From positions 1 through 64,000 of the IMG/VR virus record IMGVR_UViG_3300007094_000006: a stretch of DNA of 64,000 nucleotides; one strand, written 5' to 3'. Origin of the DNA: a virus. The notes under the pieces are model-generated. The model was not told the origin of the DNA. It was given only the letters and a program-made list of their open reading frames with translations, and did no database searches. The position numbers and the translations under genes are program-made. Each line of letters opens with the position of its first letter. Position 1 is the first letter of the stretch. Below are positions 2,938 to 63,402 of this stretch, piece by piece.

Positions 2938-2961
2938 TTGATTTCTCCTGTTAATTTCTTG

Positions 2962-3010
2962 CTGACAACTGATAACCGATAACCGATAACTGATAACTGA
3001 TAACTGATAA
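2962..3010 (+). repeat. Microcystis-type heptamer repeat (CTGATAA)x7; second degenerate array at 3505-3532
   Basis: ctgacaa ctgataa ccgataa ccgataa ctgataa ctgataa ctgataa. Confidence 0.9.
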
Positions 3011-3469
3011 CTAAGTAAATAATTTTGATGCAGTTGCCAACAGATAGACCCACTCTTCTTCAAGCATTAATTCCATTTTAGAAGAGTCAGCTATATCAAA
3101 TAAGCAAAAGTCAACTTCGTCTATACGAACACCGTCGTAATATAACTCAATATCAGTCTCTGGAAATACTGTCATAAAGCCAAATTTAAACGCGGCATTT
3201 TGACGATTTTCGCAGGTTAGTGTAGCTGAATGGTCTGAATTTACTTTTAACTTCCAGTTAATAAGTGAGGGAAAGTCTTCCTTGAAATGAGTTTCATTTA
3301 CCCATTTAGCAATTTCATCTATTATCCTTTCTTGACCTTTTTGAATAAAATAATAGATTCCTTCTGAATATCGAAACGGATAAATTAACTTTGTTTCGTA
3401 CCAGTTTAGCTTAAATTCTTGCGGCTCCGAGTCAATTTTAGGGAATTGTCCTATGTCGATTTTGGTCAT
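3011..3469 (-). CDS. Hypothetical protein (likely start MTKIDIG)
   Basis: ORF track; the N-terminal extension overlaps heptamer repeats. Confidence 0.55.
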   Translation of the reverse strand: MTKIDIGQFPKIDSEPQEFKLNWYETKLIYPFRYSEGIYYFIQKGQERIIDEIAKWVNETHFKEDFPSLINWKLKVNSDHSATLTCENRQNAAFKFGFMTVFPETDIELYYDGVRIDEVDFCLFDIADSSKMELMLEEEWVYLLATASKLFT

Positions 3470-3546: not shown

Positions 3547-4143
3547 TCACATTTCGCACACGACCCGAAAACCAATAAAATAGTGACTATGGTCATGGAA
3601 GCCAAAATTGTGGTAGCGAACAGCACTTCGACAACTATAAAAATCGCTTAAAAAAGAACCGCCACGATAAAAACCATTTTCGCACCATTCCCAGACGTTC
3701 CCGTGCATATCAAACAAACCCCAAGCATTTGGCTTTTTCTGTCTCACAGGATGAGTTGTATTTTGAGAATTTCGACCATACCACGCAAAATTCTGTAGCT
3801 GAGTGACATCATCACCAAAACAGAAATCAGTAGAAGAACCAGCACGACAAGCGTATTCCCATTCGACATCTGTAGGTAGGCGATAGGTTTTACCTGTTAA
3901 TTGACTCAATTTCTGACAAAAAGCTTGAGCGTCGTCAAAACTAACCATTTCTACTGGATTTTGGGGATTGTTTTGGCGATAAGAGGGGTTGTTTCCCATT
4001 AGTGCTTGATATTGCGCCTGAGTGACTGGATATTTGCCAAAACTCAAATTACCCATTTGACGAATTTGAACTAATTCAATAGAACAGCAATCTTTCTGCT
4101 CTTTTTGAATATTGGCTGGTTGAACTGTCTTTTTACTAGGCAT
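3547..4143 (-). CDS. FGE-sulfatase (C-type lectin fold) domain protein
   Basis: GKYPVTQAQY, YRLPTDVEWEYACRAG, PNAWGLFDMHGNVWEWC, RGGS...GFRV. Confidence 0.92.
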   Translation of the reverse strand: MPSKKTVQPANIQKEQKDCCSIELVQIRQMGNLSFGKYPVTQAQYQALMGNNPSYRQNNPQNPVEMVSFDDAQAFCQKLSQLTGKTYRLPTDVEWEYACRAGSSTDFCFGDDVTQLQNFAWYGRNSQNTTHPVRQKKPNAWGLFDMHGNVWEWCENGFYRGGSFLSDFYSCRSAVRYHNFGFHDHSHYFIGFRVVCEM

Positions 4144-22003: not shown

Positions 22004-22013
22004 AGTAGTTCAG

Positions 22014-22363
22014 TTGACACTCTCCGCCCTAAAAGTGCGGAGATTCTTGGGCTGAATCTTGCCGCTACTAGCAAAGCTAATTTTGGTCTTACAGTTTCAT
22101 GTCTAGTCCGACTACACCTACAAGGCAAGCACTCTTAAAGACTACTCCCCAAGCGTAAATTTCTGTGTGTCCCACAGTATTAACCTAAATTTGAGCGGAA
22201 TTTTAACATGTGGACTTACGATGAAAACTTTTGTACCAGTGATGGTTAGAGATTTAGGGATGACGGAGTGTCGCTTGTTTCCTGCGTTCCCAAAGTCAAC
22301 GACTCAATTTAATGCTAACTTAAAGTCGCCCTAAAGGGCGAGGTTTTCAACCCAAATTATTCG
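22014..22363 (-). mobile_element. Non-autonomous IS200/IS605-family mini-element retaining an omegaRNA-like 3' end
   Basis: Minus strand: TTAT|CGAATAATTTGGGTTGAAAACCTCGCCCTTTAGGGCGAC left end (matches 61783 element); right end GAATCTCCGCACTTTTAGGGCGGAGAGTGTCAA; internal tnpB-tail-like ACTGTGGGACACACAGAAATTTACGCTTGGGGAG. Confidence 0.85.
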
Positions 22364-22412
22364 ATAAGTGGAAACGCTCAATTTAACACTATTGAACCCT
22401 AAAAAAAAACCT

Positions 22413-54742: not shown

Positions 54743-55762
54743 ATGGAACGTAAACTTGCAACCTTAGAAGTCATCAAAGACCTTCAACCTATCCTCGGTG
54801 CTGACAATATTGAAGTGGCTACTGTCCGTGGTTGGAAAGTCGTAGTTAAAAAAGGAGAATTTCAAATTGGTAGCCTTTGTGTTTTTTTTGAAATTGATTC
54901 TTTTCTACCTGAAATTCCAGAATTTGAATTTTTGCGGAAGTCTTGTTTTGCTACCTTAAACACTGGTGAAACTGGTTTTCGTATCAAAACCATTAAGCTG
55001 AAAAAACAATTAAGTCAGGGTCTAGCTTTGCCTTTATCTCTTTTTTCCTTGACTTCTAATACCTTTACACTAGGTACAGACCTCACTGATTTCTTAGGTG
55101 TCAAAAAATGGGAACACTCTGTCTCTGCTTCTTTAGGCGGTAATGTTTTAGGCAATTTTCCCTCTTTTGTTCCTAAAACTAACGAAGAACGCATTCAAAA
55201 TTTAAGTGACCTATACCCTTTACTTTGTCAAAAATCCTTCAATGTTACCGAAAAACTAGACGGCACTAGCTTTACTGCTTTCTACTACAATGATACTTTT
55301 GGTGTCTGCTCTCGAAATCAGGAATTAATGGAATCATCTACCAACATTTATTGGCAAATTTTTCACCAGTATAAAATTGGTGATTTCCTAAAATCTTTAC
55401 CTTTCTTCTCCGCTATTCAAGGTGAAATTGTTGGTGGTAAAATTCAAGGCAATCCTTACAAACTTCCAAACTATCGGCTTTGTGTTTTCAATTTGATTAA
55501 CCTTGACAATCAAGAAAGATTAGACATTTTTTCCCCTTCTAACCTCTCCCTCTTGTCCAATGCTGGGCTTGATACTGTTCCTCTACTATTTCGTGACTTT
55601 TCTCTACCTTCTTCCCTTGATTCTTTAATTGCTTTTTCCTCTGGTAATTCCCTTCTTAATCCCAATACTATTCGTGAAGGTCTGGTTTTCAGAAACTTTG
55701 AAAATTCCTACACCAGTTTTAAAGTTATCAGCAACAATTTTTTGCTAAAACAAAAGATTTGA
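54743..55762 (+). CDS. RNA ligase, Rnl2/DRB0094 family
   Basis: N-terminal OB domain (I.GAD.IE...V.GW.VVVKKGEF), TEKLDGTS motif I, QGE..G, REGLVF, FKVISN.FL. Confidence 0.92.
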   Translation: MERKLATLEVIKDLQPILGADNIEVATVRGWKVVVKKGEFQIGSLCVFFEIDSFLPEIPEFEFLRKSCFATLNTGETGFRIKTIKLKKQLSQGLALPLSLFSLTSNTFTLGTDLTDFLGVKKWEHSVSASLGGNVLGNFPSFVPKTNEERIQNLSDLYPLLCQKSFNVTEKLDGTSFTAFYYNDTFGVCSRNQELMESSTNIYWQIFHQYKIGDFLKSLPFFSAIQGEIVGGKIQGNPYKLPNYRLCVFNLINLDNQERLDIFSPSNLSLLSNAGLDTVPLLFRDFSLPSSLDSLIAFSSGNSLLNPNTIREGLVFRNFENSYTSFKVISNNFLLKQKI

Positions 55763-55866
55763 ACTTAGGATAGTTGATTCTAGCTAGTCTTCTTAAATTC
55801 TAGGAAGACTTTTTTGCCTTCTTTAATTTAGAAGGCTTTTTTTCGCCCAAATTATAGTTAAAGCAA

Positions 55867-55940
55867 CGTGGGATAGAGCAGTCTGGTAGCTCATCAGCCT
55901 CATAAGCTGAAGGTCGTAGGTTCAAATCCTGCTCCCGCCA
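55867..55940 (+). tRNA. trnM: tRNA-Met(CAT), initiator-like body with atypical anticodon stem
   Basis: Full cloverleaf; anticodon 55901-55903; C1xC72 mismatch; A11-U24; stem TCAGC/GCTGA; CCA not encoded. Confidence 0.92.
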
Positions 55941-56021
55941 TTAAACTTAAATAGTCCTAATCGTTTGGCTTTTAGCTTCAATTGTGCTATAATTGGTTTG
56001 TATATTTTTAATAGAGAAAAA

Positions 56022-56750
56022 ATGTCTAAAAGTAATCTGATTGTATTCGATTTAGATGATACTTTGCTAAATACTAGCCATGTTTATTGGCTTGCAAAAA
56101 AGCTTTTTGTGGAAACTTTATCTGAAGAATTAAAAATTAACGAAAATAAATTAATTGAAGAATTTGAAAAAATTGATAGTATTCAAATGCAAATACTAAA
56201 GCATTCTCCTTATCGTTATACTTTAAGTATGATAGAAACTTATAAATTGGTTTCTCATAAGATAAATCATCAAATATCTGAGGAAACTTTAAAGGCTATT
56301 AAAGAGTTTGGACGTTTAATTTTAAAAATTACACCAAATACTATTAAGGGGGCTAAAGAAATTCTTGCTTGGTCATCTCAAAACTATTCCCTTGCATTAT
56401 TGACAAGAGGTGAAAATTCATTTCAAAAAAAGAAATTACACAAAAATAAACTGTATAAATACTTTGATTTTATAAGAGTTGTACCTCACAAAAACGCCGA
56501 AGTTTTAAAAAATTTTATCACAGATATAGGCTTTGATTGTCAAGATGTTTGGGTTATTGGTGACTCATTAAAATCAGATACTAATCCGGGCATTGAAATT
56601 GGAGCAAAGTGTATCTTGTACACCTATCATCATCCTCATTATCATTGGATACAAGATACTGAAAGTGTTGCATTAGGCTCTTTTTACAAAGTTGATAATT
56701 TATCAGATATTAGAGAAATTCTTGAATCAGATTCTATTTCTATTTCATAG
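56022..56750 (+). CDS. HAD-superfamily hydrolase/phosphatase
   Basis: FDLDDTL, LTRG, K, IGDSLKSD. Confidence 0.9.
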   Translation: MSKSNLIVFDLDDTLLNTSHVYWLAKKLFVETLSEELKINENKLIEEFEKIDSIQMQILKHSPYRYTLSMIETYKLVSHKINHQISEETLKAIKEFGRLILKITPNTIKGAKEILAWSSQNYSLALLTRGENSFQKKKLHKNKLYKYFDFIRVVPHKNAEVLKNFITDIGFDCQDVWVIGDSLKSDTNPGIEIGAKCILYTYHHPHYHWIQDTESVALGSFYKVDNLSDIREILESDSISIS

Positions 56751-57036: not shown

Positions 57037-57502
57037 TTAATTACCCTCATCATTATCTTCATTATTACCCTCATTTTCATCATTATCTTCATTATTATCT
57101 TCATTATTATCTTCATTATTATCTTCATCTAAAGTCACTTCTGGAGTAACATTCACTAAACCTTCAAATATTCTATACACTGTATTTCCATCTGGCGATT
57201 TCATTTCTAAATCATAAACCCACGCATTTTGCCCTATTTTATTTCCTAATGCCGGCGGTATTGTTTTCGATACTAAATGTCCTAGCACTGGTCTTATTAA
57301 TGTGTGATTTTCGTATGTGTTTTCCTCTATTACAATGTCATCAAATACTACTTCCACTTCTCCTTCTGCTAATAATGCCCCTTTAAATCTTTTTCTGATT
57401 TGCCACTTAAATTCCCACCCACTATAATCACCCGGTAAAAGTAATGATTTCCCTTTAAAATTGGCTCCTTGTCTTATTAATATGTTTTGTTTTATCGTTT
57501 CC
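57037..57502 (-). CDS. Probable accessory virion protein with (EDNN)n acidic tail
   Basis: I.I.QGA.F, QIR, VYDLE...G...R..EG.V.V.PEVT; late motif at 57535 on minus strand. Confidence 0.65.
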
Positions 57503-57612
57503 ATTTCTTTTTTCCCTTTTCTTTTAATTTTAACTTGAGCGACAAAAAACAGGGTTGACATTTTTTTTCTTTGTGCTATGATAGCTTTGTAGTCTTAGCA
57601 ATCAAGAAAAAA

Positions 57613-58332
57613 ATGCCTAATCTCACGATTTTAGATTTTGAATCCTCTAACATCCGATTTGAAAACCGTGATGGACGAGTTTGGGTGAGTCTAACTGATA
57701 TGGCAAACGCTAGTGGAAAACTCATTGGTCATTGGAACCGGCTAGACTCCACAAAGGAATTTCTGTCAGCCTTAGAGTCCGATATCCATCAACGGATATC
57801 GGAAACCATAAAAGGTGGTGTCCCTTCAAAACAAGGAACTTGGGCTATCGAAGAAGTTGCCATCGAATTTGCTGGCTGGTGTTCTGTTCATTTCAAAATT
57901 TGGATGCTACGCCAGATTAAAACTTTGATGACTCAAGGCTATGTTGCATTGCCGCAAACTCAACAGCCTAAACTTCCCGCTCACAAACTCGCTGAAGAAA
58001 TTACGGAATCTATTTTCCAAATTCAAAACAAAATTTCTGAAAACAATCCCCGATTGGCACAATTTCTCATCGATTTAGCAATTTCCGAAGTTATGCCCGC
58101 AGGTAACAGCTTAACAGGTGTTAAACTAAAAGGGGTCGCCGAAATTGCAGAATCTTTGGGTTTGCCAGTTAATTTTCAAAACCGTTCTTCTTTAGGCAAG
58201 TTTGTTAAAAAAACTTGTGGACATCTTGCTCAACAAGAAGAACGCTTGGTTAATGGACAGCAACGATTTGTTGCTTGCTACCCAGAGGATGAACCTGAAG
58301 TTATTCAAGCTATCAGAAATTTTTTTAGCTAG
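57613..58332 (+). CDS. KilA-N domain protein 1 (antirepressor-like)
   Basis: VSLTDMA...W.RL.STKEF...QGTWA..EVAI.FA.W; promoter at 57555-57582. Confidence 0.88.
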   Translation: MPNLTILDFESSNIRFENRDGRVWVSLTDMANASGKLIGHWNRLDSTKEFLSALESDIHQRISETIKGGVPSKQGTWAIEEVAIEFAGWCSVHFKIWMLRQIKTLMTQGYVALPQTQQPKLPAHKLAEEITESIFQIQNKISENNPRLAQFLIDLAISEVMPAGNSLTGVKLKGVAEIAESLGLPVNFQNRSSLGKFVKKTCGHLAQQEERLVNGQQRFVACYPEDEPEVIQAIRNFFS

Positions 58333-58631
58333 TTAGTTTGAATTTTTAATCTTTTGCCTTCTTCAATTAGAGGGCTTTTTTATGACCTTAAGCTATAAGT
58401 TTTTCTTATGAGTAATATAAGAATTAATAATCCTAGACCACTTGCCATTTTTCATCGTGTTTGCTATACTTAGATTGGTGATTCAATTTCTTAAAATCTA
58501 AGGATTAATTTTTCAGCCCGTCTTCCTACCTAAAATTGGAAGACTTTTTTTTTGTTTAAATTTTAATTTTTAGTTGACAACTTTTTTTATTTGTGTGATA
58601 CTAGAATTTGTACCTTAACAATGCGAAAAAA

Positions 58632-59249
58632 ATGCCTACTCTAACAATTTTAGATTTTCAGTCCTCTAACATCCGATTTGAAAACCGTGATGGACGAGTT
58701 TGGGTGAGTCTGACTGATATGGCGAAAGCTAGTGGAAAACGCCTTAGTCATTGGAACCAGCTAAACTCCACGAAAAAATTACTGTCTGCATTAGAGTCCG
58801 TGGTCGGGAAAACGGCCACGGAAACAATTCAAGGTAGTGTTCCGTCAAAGCAAGGAACTTGGGCTATTGAAGAAGTTGCCATTGAGTTTGCCGGGTGGTG
58901 TTCTATCCATTTCAAGATTTGGATGCTACAGCAAATCAAAACCCTGATGACCCAAGGCTATGTTGCATTGCCGCAAACTCAACAGCCTCAAACACCCAAA
59001 TTATCTGCCAACAAACAGGCATTGGAAATCAGCCGTGATGTTCGAGAAATCACTGATGTTCAACCAGAAAGTTTACACTTCTTGGAACAAACAGAAATGG
59101 GAATAAAAGTTCATCCCGTGCAGGAGTCTTACGGCAAAAATGTTGACCAAATTTTGGAAGATTTGATGGGGTTAGAAACAACTCGTCCCAAAGAAATCGC
59201 TGAAGCTTGGAAAGATATATATATGAACAAATTTCTCAAAATCAATTAG
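58632..59249 (+). CDS. KilA-N protein 2 fused to a PtuA-like C-terminal domain (frame broken at (AT)5)
   Basis: KilA-N nearly identical to gene 1, then ITDVQPESL...SYGKN.D.ILEDLMG...RP. Confidence 0.8.
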   Translation: MPTLTILDFQSSNIRFENRDGRVWVSLTDMAKASGKRLSHWNQLNSTKKLLSALESVVGKTATETIQGSVPSKQGTWAIEEVAIEFAGWCSIHFKIWMLQQIKTLMTQGYVALPQTQQPQTPKLSANKQALEISRDVREITDVQPESLHFLEQTEMGIKVHPVQESYGKNVDQILEDLMGLETTRPKEIAEAWKDIYMNKFLKIN

Positions 59250-59418
59250 AGACTTCTAAAAATAAAATCAATGACCTCAGAGCTAAAATTCAAAATGACC
59301 CAGAATTAATTAAAGCTGAAGTTGTTATTCGACGCAAGGAAATTATCGGAAAATGAAGTATATTAGAAAAAGACAAGAACCACCAGAGTTTAAGAATTGG
59401 AAAGAGCAAGCTAACCAA
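59049..59418 (+). pseudogene. Captured host ptuA 3' end and ptuB (TIGR02646-type HNH) 5' end
   Basis: ...DPELIKAEVVIRRKEIIGK* overlapping ATGA MKYIRKRQEPPEFKNWKEQAN. Confidence 0.75.
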
Positions 59419-59737
59419 GTGAAGTCCTTCCTTCTATCCACAAAACTGGTAGCTATTCCTTACCTCAACAGCCTCAACTTCTTAGTGAAGAAAAAGCGCA
59501 GTTTAAAGACTTGGAAAAGACAAAATTAAAGGTCTATGTACCGCCCACACACCCAGTGAAGTCCAAGAAGCTATAGAAGAAAAATTGTTCCCTTGCCAAA
59601 ATGGAAACGGAAACCGCAAATCAGTCTAAAAGTCTTCCAATTGAATGTTGGAAGATTTTTTTTTGTTTAAACTTTAATTTTAGTTTTGAGTAGACAACTT
59701 TTTTTTTGTGCTATACTAAAAATGTCCAATTAAATAA

Positions 59738-60127
59738 ATGTGTGTAAACTCTATGTCTCAATCTTCATTTTTAGAATCCTACCCTAACGCTGGTGGGATT
59801 CGTATTGAAAATCGTGATGGTGTGATTTGGGTTAGCCTAACCGATATTGGTCGTGCGTGTGGAAAATTTTTTTGGGAATGGAAAGAACTGGAATCCACAA
59901 AAAAGTTCCTGAACAGCTTAGGGTATGATAGAGGATTCAAACTCTTTGAAACTAAACAAGGTGGTGAAACTTCAAAACGGGGTACTTGGGCTATTGAAGA
60001 AGTAGCCATTGAGTTTGCTAACTGGTGTTATCCTAGCTTAAAAGATGTGGCGGTAGCTAAAGCGGTCGCTGAAATCCAAAATTTGCTTTCTGACGACAAC
60101 CCCCGATTTGCACAAGGAATTTTCTAA
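59738..60127 (+). CDS. KilA-N protein 3 (truncated)
   Basis: Same motifs; ends just after the NPR.AQ segment seen in gene 1; promoter at 59691-59717. Confidence 0.8.
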   Translation: MCVNSMSQSSFLESYPNAGGIRIENRDGVIWVSLTDIGRACGKFFWEWKELESTKKFLNSLGYDRGFKLFETKQGGETSKRGTWAIEEVAIEFANWCYPSLKDVAVAKAVAEIQNLLSDDNPRFAQGIF

Positions 60128-61185: not shown

Positions 61186-61452
61186 ATGAACTCAATCAAT
61201 GCCACGCTAATCCTCAAATTCATTGTTAAAACCAAAATCGTTGGTGACACTAAGCAGTTTGCCGTGTTTGTCAACGTCGTCATCACTACGGAACCTCACC
61301 CTAGTCTAAAGGAGGCAATGGACGAATATTCTTCTCTAATATCTGATATGTTTGAAAAAATAAAAACAGATTTGGAAAAAGAATACTGCGAACGTTCGAT
61401 TGCTTTTTTGGACTCGGTAACGCCTACTTTCTTTCAGTCTAGCAAGTCCTAA
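61186..61452 (+). CDS. Hypothetical protein
   Basis: 88-aa ORF convergent with HNH gene. Confidence 0.55.
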   Translation: MNSINATLILKFIVKTKIVGDTKQFAVFVNVVITTEPHPSLKEAMDEYSSLISDMFEKIKTDLEKEYCERSIAFLDSVTPTFFQSSKS

Positions 61453-61730
61453 TCGTCAAATCGGGTATCAATCTTATTCCCTTGTGCCAAATTGCAACTA
61501 GGACAAAGCAAAACTAAATTTTTTAAGTCAATGGCTAAAGATTTCGTTTGCTCTTCTAATTTTGATATGGGTATCAAATGGTGTACATGATACCCATTGT
61601 TCAAATTATTAAAACAGTTTGGACACAGAAACCGTTGTTTTTTTTTCAGGAAATCGATTCCTGTTTTACCTACACTTGATTTTTTCCAATTGTTAAATAA
61701 TTTGCGATAATCGTTTTGCTTCTTATACAT
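61449..61730 (-). CDS. HNH endonuclease
   Basis: CPNC...HVHHLIP...NLVLLCPSCNL.QG.K. Confidence 0.85.
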   Translation of the reverse strand: MYKKQNDYRKLFNNWKKSSVGKTGIDFLKKKQRFLCPNCFNNLNNGYHVHHLIPISKLEEQTKSLAIDLKNLVLLCPSCNLAQGNKIDTRFDD

Positions 61731-61782: not shown

Positions 61783-63177
61783 CGCAAAAAGGGGGTTTAA
61801 AACCTCGCTCTTTAGGGCGACCACTTGGAATTAGTCTTCATGCTTTAAATTTAATTTAAAAAAGTGTTGACAACTTTTTTTCTTGTGCTATACTAAAGTA
61901 AAGACACACTCATCTGAGAATTTCATGAAAGCAAGGTATCAATTCCGTATTTACCCAACAGACCAACAAAAAAGGCTTTTGTCTCAGTTGTTCGGATGTG
62001 TGCGTGTTGTATGGAACGATACCTTAGCTTATTGCCAAGAACTCTATCAACAAGGAGAGAAAAAGCCAAAATATACCGAGTTGTCTAAAAGACTAACTCA
62101 AGTTAAAAATCTGAAGAAAAACGGTGGTTGACTGAGGTTTCTTCTATTCCTTTACAACAGTCTTTGAGAGACTTGGAGACTGCCTACTCTAACTTTTTCG
62201 CATCTTGTAAAGGAAAAAGGAAAGGAAAAAAAGTCAAACCTCCCAAGTTTAAAAAACGTAAATCTAAACAATCAGCGAGATTTACTGAAAACGGTTTTAT
62301 CGTTAAGCAACACTGCGTCTATTTAACAAAAATCGGTGATTTAAAAATAGTTTGGAGTCGTCCATTACCCTCTAAACCTTCTAGTGTCACCGTGATTAAA
62401 GACGCATCAGACCGCTATTTTCTTAGCTTTGTTGTCGAAGTTCAGCCCGAAATACTTCCTGATAATGGGGAGTCCGTGGGAATGGATTTAGGAATTGCTA
62501 CCTTTGCTACCCTTTCAACGGGGGAAAAGATAGACGCACCGAAACCGTTAAAGAAACGATTGAAAAGGCTTAAAAAAGCACAGAGAAACCTTTCCAGAAA
62601 ACAAAAAGGGAGTAAACGACGGGAAAAAGCCAGAAAACGAGTGGCTAAAATCCACGCAAAAATTAAGGACACTCGTACTGATTTCTTGCATAAACTATCC
62701 ACTAGAATTGTTCGTGAAAATCAAACAATAATTTTAGAGGATTTAAACACATCGGGAATGCTTAAGAATCGTAAGCTATCCCGTGCTATATCAGACTTAG
62801 GATGGCGTTCTTTTCGAGATATGCTATCAGCAAAATCTGATAAATATGGACGTGATTTTCGGATAATTTCCAGATGGGAGCCAACGTCTCAAAGGTGTTC
62901 TTGTTGTGGGAATATCGGAGGTAAGAAAGCGTTAAATATTCGTGAGTGGGAATGTCTTTTCTGTGGGACTTTTCATGATAGGGATGTAAACGCCGCAATT
63001 AATATAAAGGTCGCCGGTGGACAATCGGAGACCTCAAAAAACGGACGTGGAGGACAGCGTAAGACTTCTGTTAAAGAAGCAGTATCCTGTGAAGCGTCAA
63101 CCCAACCGAAGATTGAACAATTAAGTTTGTTTGATTTGCCGGGAATCACCGTCCGTTAACGACGGTGAGGATGTCAA
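61783..63177 (+). mobile_element. IS200/IS605-family element with tnpB and no tnpA
   Basis: TTAT target at 61779-61782; left-end hairpin CTCGCTCTTTAGGGCGA; right-end hairpin TCACCGTC/GACGGTGA ending TCAA. Confidence 0.9.
61925..63159 (+). CDS. tnpB: TnpB RNA-guided nuclease, split by a 1-bp deletion in the A run at 62105-62109
   Basis: RIYPT..Q...FGC.R.VWN; RuvC GMDLG, ILEDL, HDRD.NAA; CxxC zinc finger; ~411 aa if repaired. Confidence 0.9.
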
Positions 63178-63402
63178 GCTAGTAGGTTTAGCGGTAGTGT
63201 CAAAACTTTGAGGAAGTTTAAACCCTAGACCGCTAGTAGAATCAGATACTGCTAACCCTGGTTCCATTAAATTGATTAAATCTCTCAAAGCTGGAGCATT
63301 ATTTCCATTAACAAGTCTAGTATCGTAAGCAAATAAATTAGACCGAAAACCCATATAATAATTACCGACATTATCTGTGTTTTGTAAGTTTGGTGTAGTC
63401 AT
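63121..63402 (-). CDS. Hypothetical protein with its 3' end interrupted by the IS605 element
   Basis: Removing 61783-63177 restores ...KPTS-IIKAFRTYIG* ending ~20 bp before the HNH gene. Confidence 0.65.
   Translation of the reverse strand: MTTPNLQNTDNVGNYYMGFRSNLFAYDTRLVNGNNAPALRDLINLMEPGLAVSDSTSGLGFKLPQSFDTTAKPTSLTSSPSLTDGDSRQIKQT

Follow-up and report, generated by a model that had tools for sequence, protein, structure and literature searches.

Septu and retron PtuAB systems work by cleaving tRNA-Tyr. In solved structures, the C-terminal domain (CTD) of PtuB is clamped by the pair of CTDs of a PtuA dimer, giving a nine-helix bundle (PMC12819146), and deletion of the PtuA CTD weakens defence (PMC12673091). 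Several escapes from PtuAB have been described, namely phage tRNA-Tyr and T5 Rad (PMC11555353; bioRxiv 10.1101/2023.03.15.532788), and amplification driven by SegB (PMC13096335). No protein inhibitor of Septu derived from PtuA itself is described in this PtuAB-escape literature (PMC11555353; bioRxiv 10.1101/2023.03.15.532788; PMC13096335).

Here we report on a piece of ptuA that is carried by a phage and is fused to an antirepressor gene of the KilA-N type. The analysed window covers positions 1 to 64,000 of the IMG/VR virus record IMGVR_UViG_3300007094_000006, a sequence of 96.8 kb rated complete by CheckV, and the nearest named relative of the record is Microcystis phage Mic1, with ~80% nucleotide identity in the region of the KilA-N array. 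A first-pass annotation, made from the letters of the window, had read the fusion as an early-expressed decoy that sequesters PtuB or poisons PtuAB and is possibly phase-variable through an AT repeat. We compared the locus with its phage relatives, with the Septu operons of Microcystis and with the known structures of PtuA, in terms of its joints, its reading frame, its distribution and its divergence.

Results

The KilA-N array

Three tandem KilA-N antirepressor paralogues lie at 57.5-60.3 kb, each with a similar TTGACA-type promoter 5' and a similar hairpin terminator 3', and the chimera is the second of them (copy 2; Table 1). Its KilA-N domain is recognised by PF04383 (E 2e-15, aa 21-107) and phrog_129 (E 3.7e-22), and the protein is 81% identical to P0189 over aa 1-139 of the chimera. 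The closest KilA-N relatives (P0189, P0199 and P0201) are full length, reading ...ALEISRDVREITDNLTDNPRLAQFLID... through to ...FFS, and the uninterrupted KilA-N sequence is confirmed in the DNA of IMG/VR loci L025-L029. This C-terminal domain of the Mic1-like relatives is missing from copy 2, where it is replaced from residue 143 on (alignment with P0189, P0122 and others). Mic1 itself carries one intact KilA-N copy plus stumps, and nothing in it corresponds to 58991-59627.

Table 1. Coordinates of the features of the KilA-N array and the captured Septu piece, as positions in the 64-kb window
Feature	Position	Strand	Description
KilA-N copy 1	57613..58332	+	Full length, 239 aa; orthologue of Mic1 antirepressor Mic1_17
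Chimeric-gene promoter	58574..58602	+	Sigma-70-like: TTGACA, 17 nt, GATACT, with TG; repeat family D6
KilA-N copy 2, chimeric ORF	58632..59249	+	205 aa: KilA-N aa 1-139, PtuA 326-383, 8 out-of-frame residues (MNKFLKIN)
Native antirepressor part, KilA-N domain and linker	58632..59048	+	81% identity to the uninterrupted 241-aa relative P0189
Left joint	59049..59057	+	9-nt near-identity ATCACT(G/C)AT; phage parent I-T-D, host ptuA I-T-H, same codon phase
Host-derived ptuA 3' end	59058..59356	+	PtuA aa 329-426 and stop; last ATPase strand, linker domain, three-helix CTD; 13 phage-specific substitutions
Frame +2 ORF	59207..59356	+	49 codons, from TTG at 59207: severed end of CTD helix 1 and CTD helices 2-3 (PtuA 384-426); P0183
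(AT)5 run	59215..59224	+	Holds the sole indel (+2 bp) in 367 nt against 8 hosts; run created by C-to-A at 59221
Host ptuB start	59353..59415	+	21 codons, host ATGA overlap with ptuA kept; ORF continues into unrelated sequence (58 aa total)
Antirepressor-paralogue remnant	59415..59577	+	End of N-domain and linker, motif DVLPSIHKTGSYS...SEEKA; open in the KilA-N frame
Intrinsic terminator	59628..59660	+	Common to neighbouring copies; repeat family D5
KilA-N copy 3	59738..60127	+	Truncated, 129 aa vs 255 aa in related locus L035 (2650-3414)

The array is a high-turnover zone, as seen in its paralogues, its repeated promoters and terminators, the truncated third copy, the stumps in Mic1 and a host insertion sequence 2.5 kb away. 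It looks to have been permuted by several rearrangements. Copy 3 is without the FQDWVVQDVLPSIHKTGSYS segment, a version of which sits upstream, in the stump beside the Septu insert.

Further features were observed around the array. The stretch 54743-56750, 2 kb upstream, holds an RNA ligase, a HAD hydrolase and a tRNA-Met (55867-55940) with ~86% similarity to tRNA genes of the host, and the presence of this RNA-repair and tRNA cassette beside a Septu-derived fragment may be no coincidence. On the minus strand, the 3' end of an ORF at 57037-57561 is a tandem array with a 9- to 12-nt period that codes for an acidic tail of N/E/D repeats, and the 5' end and upstream region of the same ORF (57400-57554) are 96% identical to Mic1 at and just upstream of the start of Mic1_16, annotated as a receptor-binding protein gene.

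Other stretches of the window also match Microcystis. An IS-like element with tnpB at 61894-63183, 2.5 kb downstream of the Septu fragment, has 89-90% identity to multiple Microcystis copies and shows that mobile DNA of the host reached this region of the phage genome. An intergenic patch of 355 nt that holds no ORF (22012-22367) is 93-94% identical to a Microcystis intergenic element, which is present as one full and one partial copy per genome and lies in genome G001 between a small ORF and a metallophosphoesterase gene. A search of this patch against Rfam returned no match; it could represent another insertion from the host, of an age similar to that of the Septu piece, or else a small element with a mobile or regulatory role. 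Positions 2944-3040 match a highly repeated Microcystis tandem repeat at up to 96%, with successive host matches beginning 28 nt apart, and a 360-nt stretch at 3679-4040 is 69-81% similar to a multi-copy host element.

A piece of the Microcystis Septu operon

The first-pass annotation had expected a match to Microcystis ptuAB loci, and this was found: 59049-59415 aligns with the ptuA-ptuB junction of eight Microcystis genomes at 91.6-94.3% nucleotide identity, with a single 2-nt gap at the AT run, and the homology ends abruptly on both sides. The captured piece of ~360 nt spans PtuA residues 326-426 plus 21 codons of ptuB. From 59049 onwards the chimera (aa 140-197) matches positions 322-375 of the 421 of the PADLOC PtuA profile PDLC00271 (E 5e-8), the ORF in the +2 frame matches the end of the PtuA profile in PADLOC (379-423 of 423, E 5e-8), and the ORF at 59353-59529 matches positions 1-22 of the PADLOC PtuB profile (E 3e-5). 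Pfam and NCBIfam gave no match for the fragment itself, and it was detected only by the PADLOC profiles and direct homology searches. Reading through the frame gives a stretch of 101 aa that aligns over its whole length, at 86-92% identity, with the C-termini of ~76 Microcystis clusters of 426-aa PtuA; the next best group is from other phyla, at ~60% identity.

The ATPase core is not in the piece, as neither Walker A, the signature, Walker B nor the H-loop is included and the homology begins past the H-loop ISTHSP and the end of AAA_21. The profiles and the alignment to host DNA thus bear out the proposal that a C-terminal, post-H-loop part of PtuA is fused in frame to a KilA-N gene. The start of a PtuB is likewise present, and the ~22 codons proposed for it agree with the extent of the profile match, although homology at the DNA level covers 21 codons and stops at 59415. 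With ptuB reduced to these 21 codons, no full-length PtuB HNH is adjacent, and the 93-aa HNH at 61449-61730 on the minus strand is a separate small HNH gene. No further PtuA or PtuB sequence was found anywhere in the 96.8-kb phage genome. An antisense RNA against host ptuAB was considered and rejected: on the minus strand of the insert, the one site that resembles a promoter scores 9/12, and such sites are just as numerous as expected from shuffled sequence.

In the host, the locus encodes a PtuA of 426 aa (PDLC00271, E 1.6e-161) and a PtuB of 210 aa (PDLC00320, E 2.6e-98) which overlap at ATGA and are flanked by a methyltransferase and ALAD. Stand-alone Septu of the same subtype was present in 8/9 of the Microcystis loci recovered; a retron origin of the piece was rejected, there being no reverse transcriptase near the host loci. 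In the host PtuA, the H-loop reads ISTHSP and residue 326 is the last one covered by Pfam AAA_21. Modelled with AlphaFold (pLDDT 80), the protein matched the PtuA chains of Retron-Eco7, Ec83 and E. coli Septu with a Foldseek probability of 1.0. Past residue 325, the model predicts strands at 325-328, 334-340 and 343-348, and helices at 357-364, 373-387, 391-405 and 409-425. The last three helices are the CTD by sequence alignment to the Eco7 PtuA, and that this domain recruits PtuB, as had been stated in the first-pass annotation, agrees with the published work, in which the three-helix CTD holds the PtuB CTD and its deletion weakens defence (PMC12819146; PMC12673091).

Microcystis assemblies also hold short PtuA ORFs that consist of the CTD only (62-90 aa), a 174-aa form with an unrelated N-terminus (P0123-P0130, P0158) and, at locus L016, one divergent, shortened ptuA. 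Together these suggest that ptuA is frequently disrupted or rearranged in the host.

Two joints within antirepressor genes

At the left joint, uninterrupted KilA-N relatives read REITDNLTD and the hosts read NIITHVQPES, while the hybrid reads REITD and then VQPES. Since REITD is found in the uninterrupted relatives it is phage sequence, and host-only DNA begins at 59058. The switch from KilA-N to PtuA had been placed at the ITD at 59049, and homology to ptuA does start there, although the ITD itself belongs to the phage. An exchange of H328 for D, which could be taken for a catalytic-histidine mutation, was rejected on the same grounds, as the D comes from the phage parent and the actual H-loop is encoded in the part of ptuA upstream of what was captured. 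Because the nine nucleotides of near-identity stand in the same codon phase in both parents, an in-frame fusion arises mechanically, without a need for selection.

Beyond 59415, on the right, a further 53 codons are open in the KilA-N frame, and they match antirepressor PHROGs (phrog_130, E 1.2e-5; phrog_463, positions 98-139) and annotated antirepressors in 59 GenBank phages. The motif DVLPSIHKTGSYS ... QPQLPSEEKA, which occurs in the related viral loci L035, L030 and L034, belongs there to KilA-N and Bro-type antirepressors and falls at the N-domain's end and in the linker. The possibility that the right flank is the original 3' end of copy 2 was rejected, since its match is to a different paralogue, over the last part of the N-domain and the linker. 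The host DNA thus connects two distinct paralogues, both truncated, with a stub of copy 2 to its left and a stump of the other to its right. Gone from the site are the C-terminal domain that copy 2 once had, the signals between the genes and the 5' portion of the gene that followed. This is the pattern expected when a deletion in a rearrangement-prone array is closed by captured filler DNA.

The AT run and the reading frame

All eight hosts read GATATCTATGAA (D-I-Y-E) at the place of the AT run and have no such run, whereas the phage reads GATATATATATGAA, which differs by a C-to-A change at 59221 and two extra bases. The extra 2 bp shift the frame after Y383 of PtuA, within CTD helix 1, and the 205-aa product ends 8 residues later. 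It retains the KilA-N domain, the PtuA linker domain and ~11/15 residues of CTD helix 1; CTD helices 2 and 3 are missing from it and are encoded in a separate frame of 49 codons. The frameshift therefore leaves the encoded protein without two helices that are needed to complete the bundle that holds PtuB. The position of the (AT)5 run, the length of 240 aa for a fusion with the frame repaired and the ATGA overlap had all been given correctly in the first-pass annotation.

The exact 205-aa protein (P0078) occurs on 3 contigs, which come from two sources, JGI/IMG and ENA, and three member sequences represent the 49-aa frame. No intact 240-aa fusion was found among 5.8 billion protein clusters, in a search in which the read-through protein was compared with proteins of 178-2000 aa and an intact 240-aa fusion would have ranked first. 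Among architectures other than PtuA, this search gave the 205-aa form alone, and a search of shorter proteins returned no other PtuA CTD fused to a foreign domain. In the 64 kb of the window, (AT)5 occurs twice and no longer AT run is present. The assembly keeps an ORF of 2575 aa and many ORFs of 600-950 aa intact, some of them across A8 runs.

Phase variation through the AT repeat, as had been proposed, thus finds little in its favour: five units are a short run, the run has no counterpart in the hosts and its length does not vary on the 3 contigs.

Distribution

The PtuA piece is absent from Mic1, from 15 related IMG/VR loci, from GenBank phages and from >80 related KilA-N proteins. The 205-aa protein gave no match in scans of IMG/VR and JGI metagenomes, a degenerate pattern of the left joint was not found in IMG/VR or metagenomes, and a pattern of conserved CTD motifs was not found in IMG/VR; as these scans mask records near-identical to this genome, the absences hold for more distant relatives. 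With tblastn against GenBank phages, the read-through CTD had no match, and the full PtuA gave full or ATPase-core matches with no capture of the CTD only. As far as these data reach, (AT)5 is fixed on the 3 contigs and no relative carries the fusion, two of the three parts (the third being a lack of protection) of an outcome that had been named in advance as evidence against a working decoy; the view of (AT)n variation is through those 3 contigs, with near-identical records masked in the scans.

Divergence from the host

Leaving out the joint, the ptuA part carries 13 substitutions found in the phage alone, of which 6 are non-synonymous and 7 synonymous, against the ~3-4:1 expected under neutrality (binomial P 0.007-0.06). 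This 6:7 ratio hints at purifying selection somewhere on the branch, which may include time in an unsampled host donor. In a tree, the phage copy nests within the diversity of Microcystis, on a long branch of 0.057, similar to that of one divergent host (0.049). None of the six replacements is present in 76 host clusters. Three of them (R359Q, L379W and A394S) fall on columns that are at least 90% conserved in 22 PtuAs, 57-95% identical to the host protein, and this share of 3/6 is what is expected without constraint. The signals of selection are thus in conflict, and the counts are small.

Discussion

The most likely explanation, which we hold with some reserve, is that host Septu DNA was captured by illegitimate recombination and is now inactive. 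A Mic1-like Microcystis phage would have acquired ~360 nt of the stand-alone Septu operon of its host, with the left crossover at the nine-nucleotide near-identity ATCACT(G/C)AT, where the two parents share a codon phase (REITD and IITH), giving an in-frame fusion. On the right, the host DNA abuts the stump of a different antirepressor paralogue, and the piece probably served as filler which sealed a deletion that took away the C-terminal domain from copy 2 and the 5' portion from the gene after it. A later gain of 2 bp in the newly formed AT run truncated the chimera after Y383 of PtuA, and the present gene would be an inactive relic with regard to Septu, tolerated presumably because copy 1 supplies the antirepressor function. 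The near-identity at the joint, the ptuB stub, the paralogue stump, the singleton distribution and the frameshift that removes two docking helices all argue for an accidental capture that is now inactive; in particular, 63 nt of ptuB would be of no use to a decoy and fit a raw chunk of DNA.

Some observations count against this reading. The 6:7 ratio of substitutions hints that purifying selection has acted somewhere on the branch. The divergence of ~5% from all sampled hosts implies that the piece persisted for some time in a compact phage genome. Furthermore, a whole docking module in frame, a strong early-type promoter and a defence system that is common in the host genus are what one would look for in a decoy.

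A decoy that was recently inactivated, or that is switchable, is accordingly the alternative to be weighed most closely, although we think it rather improbable. In this reading, a 240-aa fusion of KilA-N to PtuA(326-426), made early from its own promoter, would titrate PtuB away from PtuA; the stolen three-helix CTD might bind the PtuB CTD or cap PtuA dimers, and (AT)5 would represent either the off state or a fresh loss of function. The entire CTD and the linker domain were indeed captured in frame, with their own promoter 5' and terminator 3', the CTD is the dock of PtuB and is required for defence (PMC12819146; PMC12673091), the subtype is the one in 8/9 of the recovered Microcystis loci, the 6:7 ratio suggests some constraint, and virus-borne copies of defence subunits are known to act as inhibitors in the case of viral cas genes (bioRxiv 10.1101/2023.06.24.545427). 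However, the gene is frameshifted on all 3 recorded contigs and no intact form exists among the 5.8 billion clusters, the fusion is unique to this genome, half of the replacements lie on near-invariant PtuA positions, and the ptuB stub and near-identity joint fit an accident. In addition, PtuB is clamped by the pair of CTDs of a PtuA dimer (PMC12819146), so that one CTD by itself, attached to a foreign protein, may be a poor binder, and (AT)5 is short for slippage and one of two such runs in 64 kb. The boldest form of the decoy reading, in which the chimera sequesters PtuB now or did so until very recently, on a KilA-N scaffold, driven by an early promoter and perhaps toggled by the AT run, we regard as unlikely; for the gene as it stands it finds no support, as the frame is lost after Y383, two of three CTD helices go with it and no intact 240-aa form was found.

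It is very unlikely that either the truncated 205-aa protein or the separate ORF of 49 codons has an activity of its own, such as poisoning of PtuA assembly by the linker domain and last ATPase strand, or binding of PtuB by the 49-aa helical hairpin, translated alone. Each of the two ORFs is intact as such and a PtuA C-terminus is still recognised in the 49-aa frame (E 5e-8), yet neither is conserved elsewhere and, by the structural model, the retained strands normally lie within the ATPase sheet and would be exposed out of context. The record being a metagenome-assembled viral contig with an indel in a simple repeat, the host-like patch could also be a mis-assembly, or the 2-bp insertion a sequencing error over a real 240-aa fusion. 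We give such an artefact slightly less credence still: phage DNA on both flanks together with 13 private substitutions rules against a join to co-assembled host reads, the identical truncated protein is found on 3 contigs from two sources, and the 2575-aa ORF and many ORFs of 600-950 aa are unbroken in the same assembly, some across A8 runs. Finally, as whole PtuA homologues are carried by phages and prophages (tblastn, GenBank phages), the piece could be what is left of a complete phage-borne Septu, later deleted down to the ptuA-ptuB junction. This seems the least credible of all, given that no other PtuA or PtuB sequence is left in the 96.8-kb genome, none occurs in Mic1 or the 15 related loci, the piece nests inside the chromosomal diversity of Microcystis and both joints lie within antirepressor coding sequence.

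If the capture reading is true, the locus is a clean, datable scar of DNA transfer from host to phage in a bloom-forming cyanobacterium, with both joints resolved. The Septu fragment also identifies the host as Microcystis and names one Septu subtype that the phage has met. Were the chimera to function as a decoy, Septu would for the first time have yielded a protein inhibitor of its own. A decoy ancestor would mean that a defence operon can give rise to an anti-defence gene in a single step, and that a PtuA CTD on a carrier could make a simple reagent for turning Septu off.

Among the phage relatives, the chimera resembles most closely the KilA-N antirepressors of Mic1-like cyanophages (Mic1_17, QDB71386.1; P0189, P0199, P0201), to which its N-terminal 139 aa are 75-81% identical and with which it shares the same cassette of promoter and terminator; the relatives have a conserved C-terminal domain of ~100 aa (...NPRLAQFLID...FFS) where the chimera has host DNA. 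The donor type is the stand-alone Septu of Microcystis (M. aeruginosa Ma_QC_C_20070703_M131, SFCA01000025.1), with 92-94% nucleotide identity across the 3' end of ptuA, the ATGA and the start of ptuB, while the phage copy differs by its +2 bp indel and 13 private substitutions and has nothing past 59415. The captured linker domain and three-helix CTD are homologous to those of the PtuA proteins of Septu and type I-A retrons (8EEA; Retron-Eco7/Ec78 9KJX; Ec83 9E90), although the phage piece is reduced to residues 326-426, without the ATPase core or a partner nuclease, is fused to KilA-N and is frameshifted in CTD helix 1. The closest parallel in concept is with viral cas genes (bioRxiv 10.1101/2023.06.24.545427), the idea being that part of an immune complex, once stolen, could have a dominant-negative effect. 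The cas genes are intact, recur and were shown to inhibit, whereas the chimera is broken, unique and known from sequence alone. The escapes through phage tRNA-Tyr, T5 Rad and SegB are directed at the defence module that the chimera would target, and these routes differ from it in that they work by replacement of the substrate, by an unrelated inhibitor or by gene amplification.
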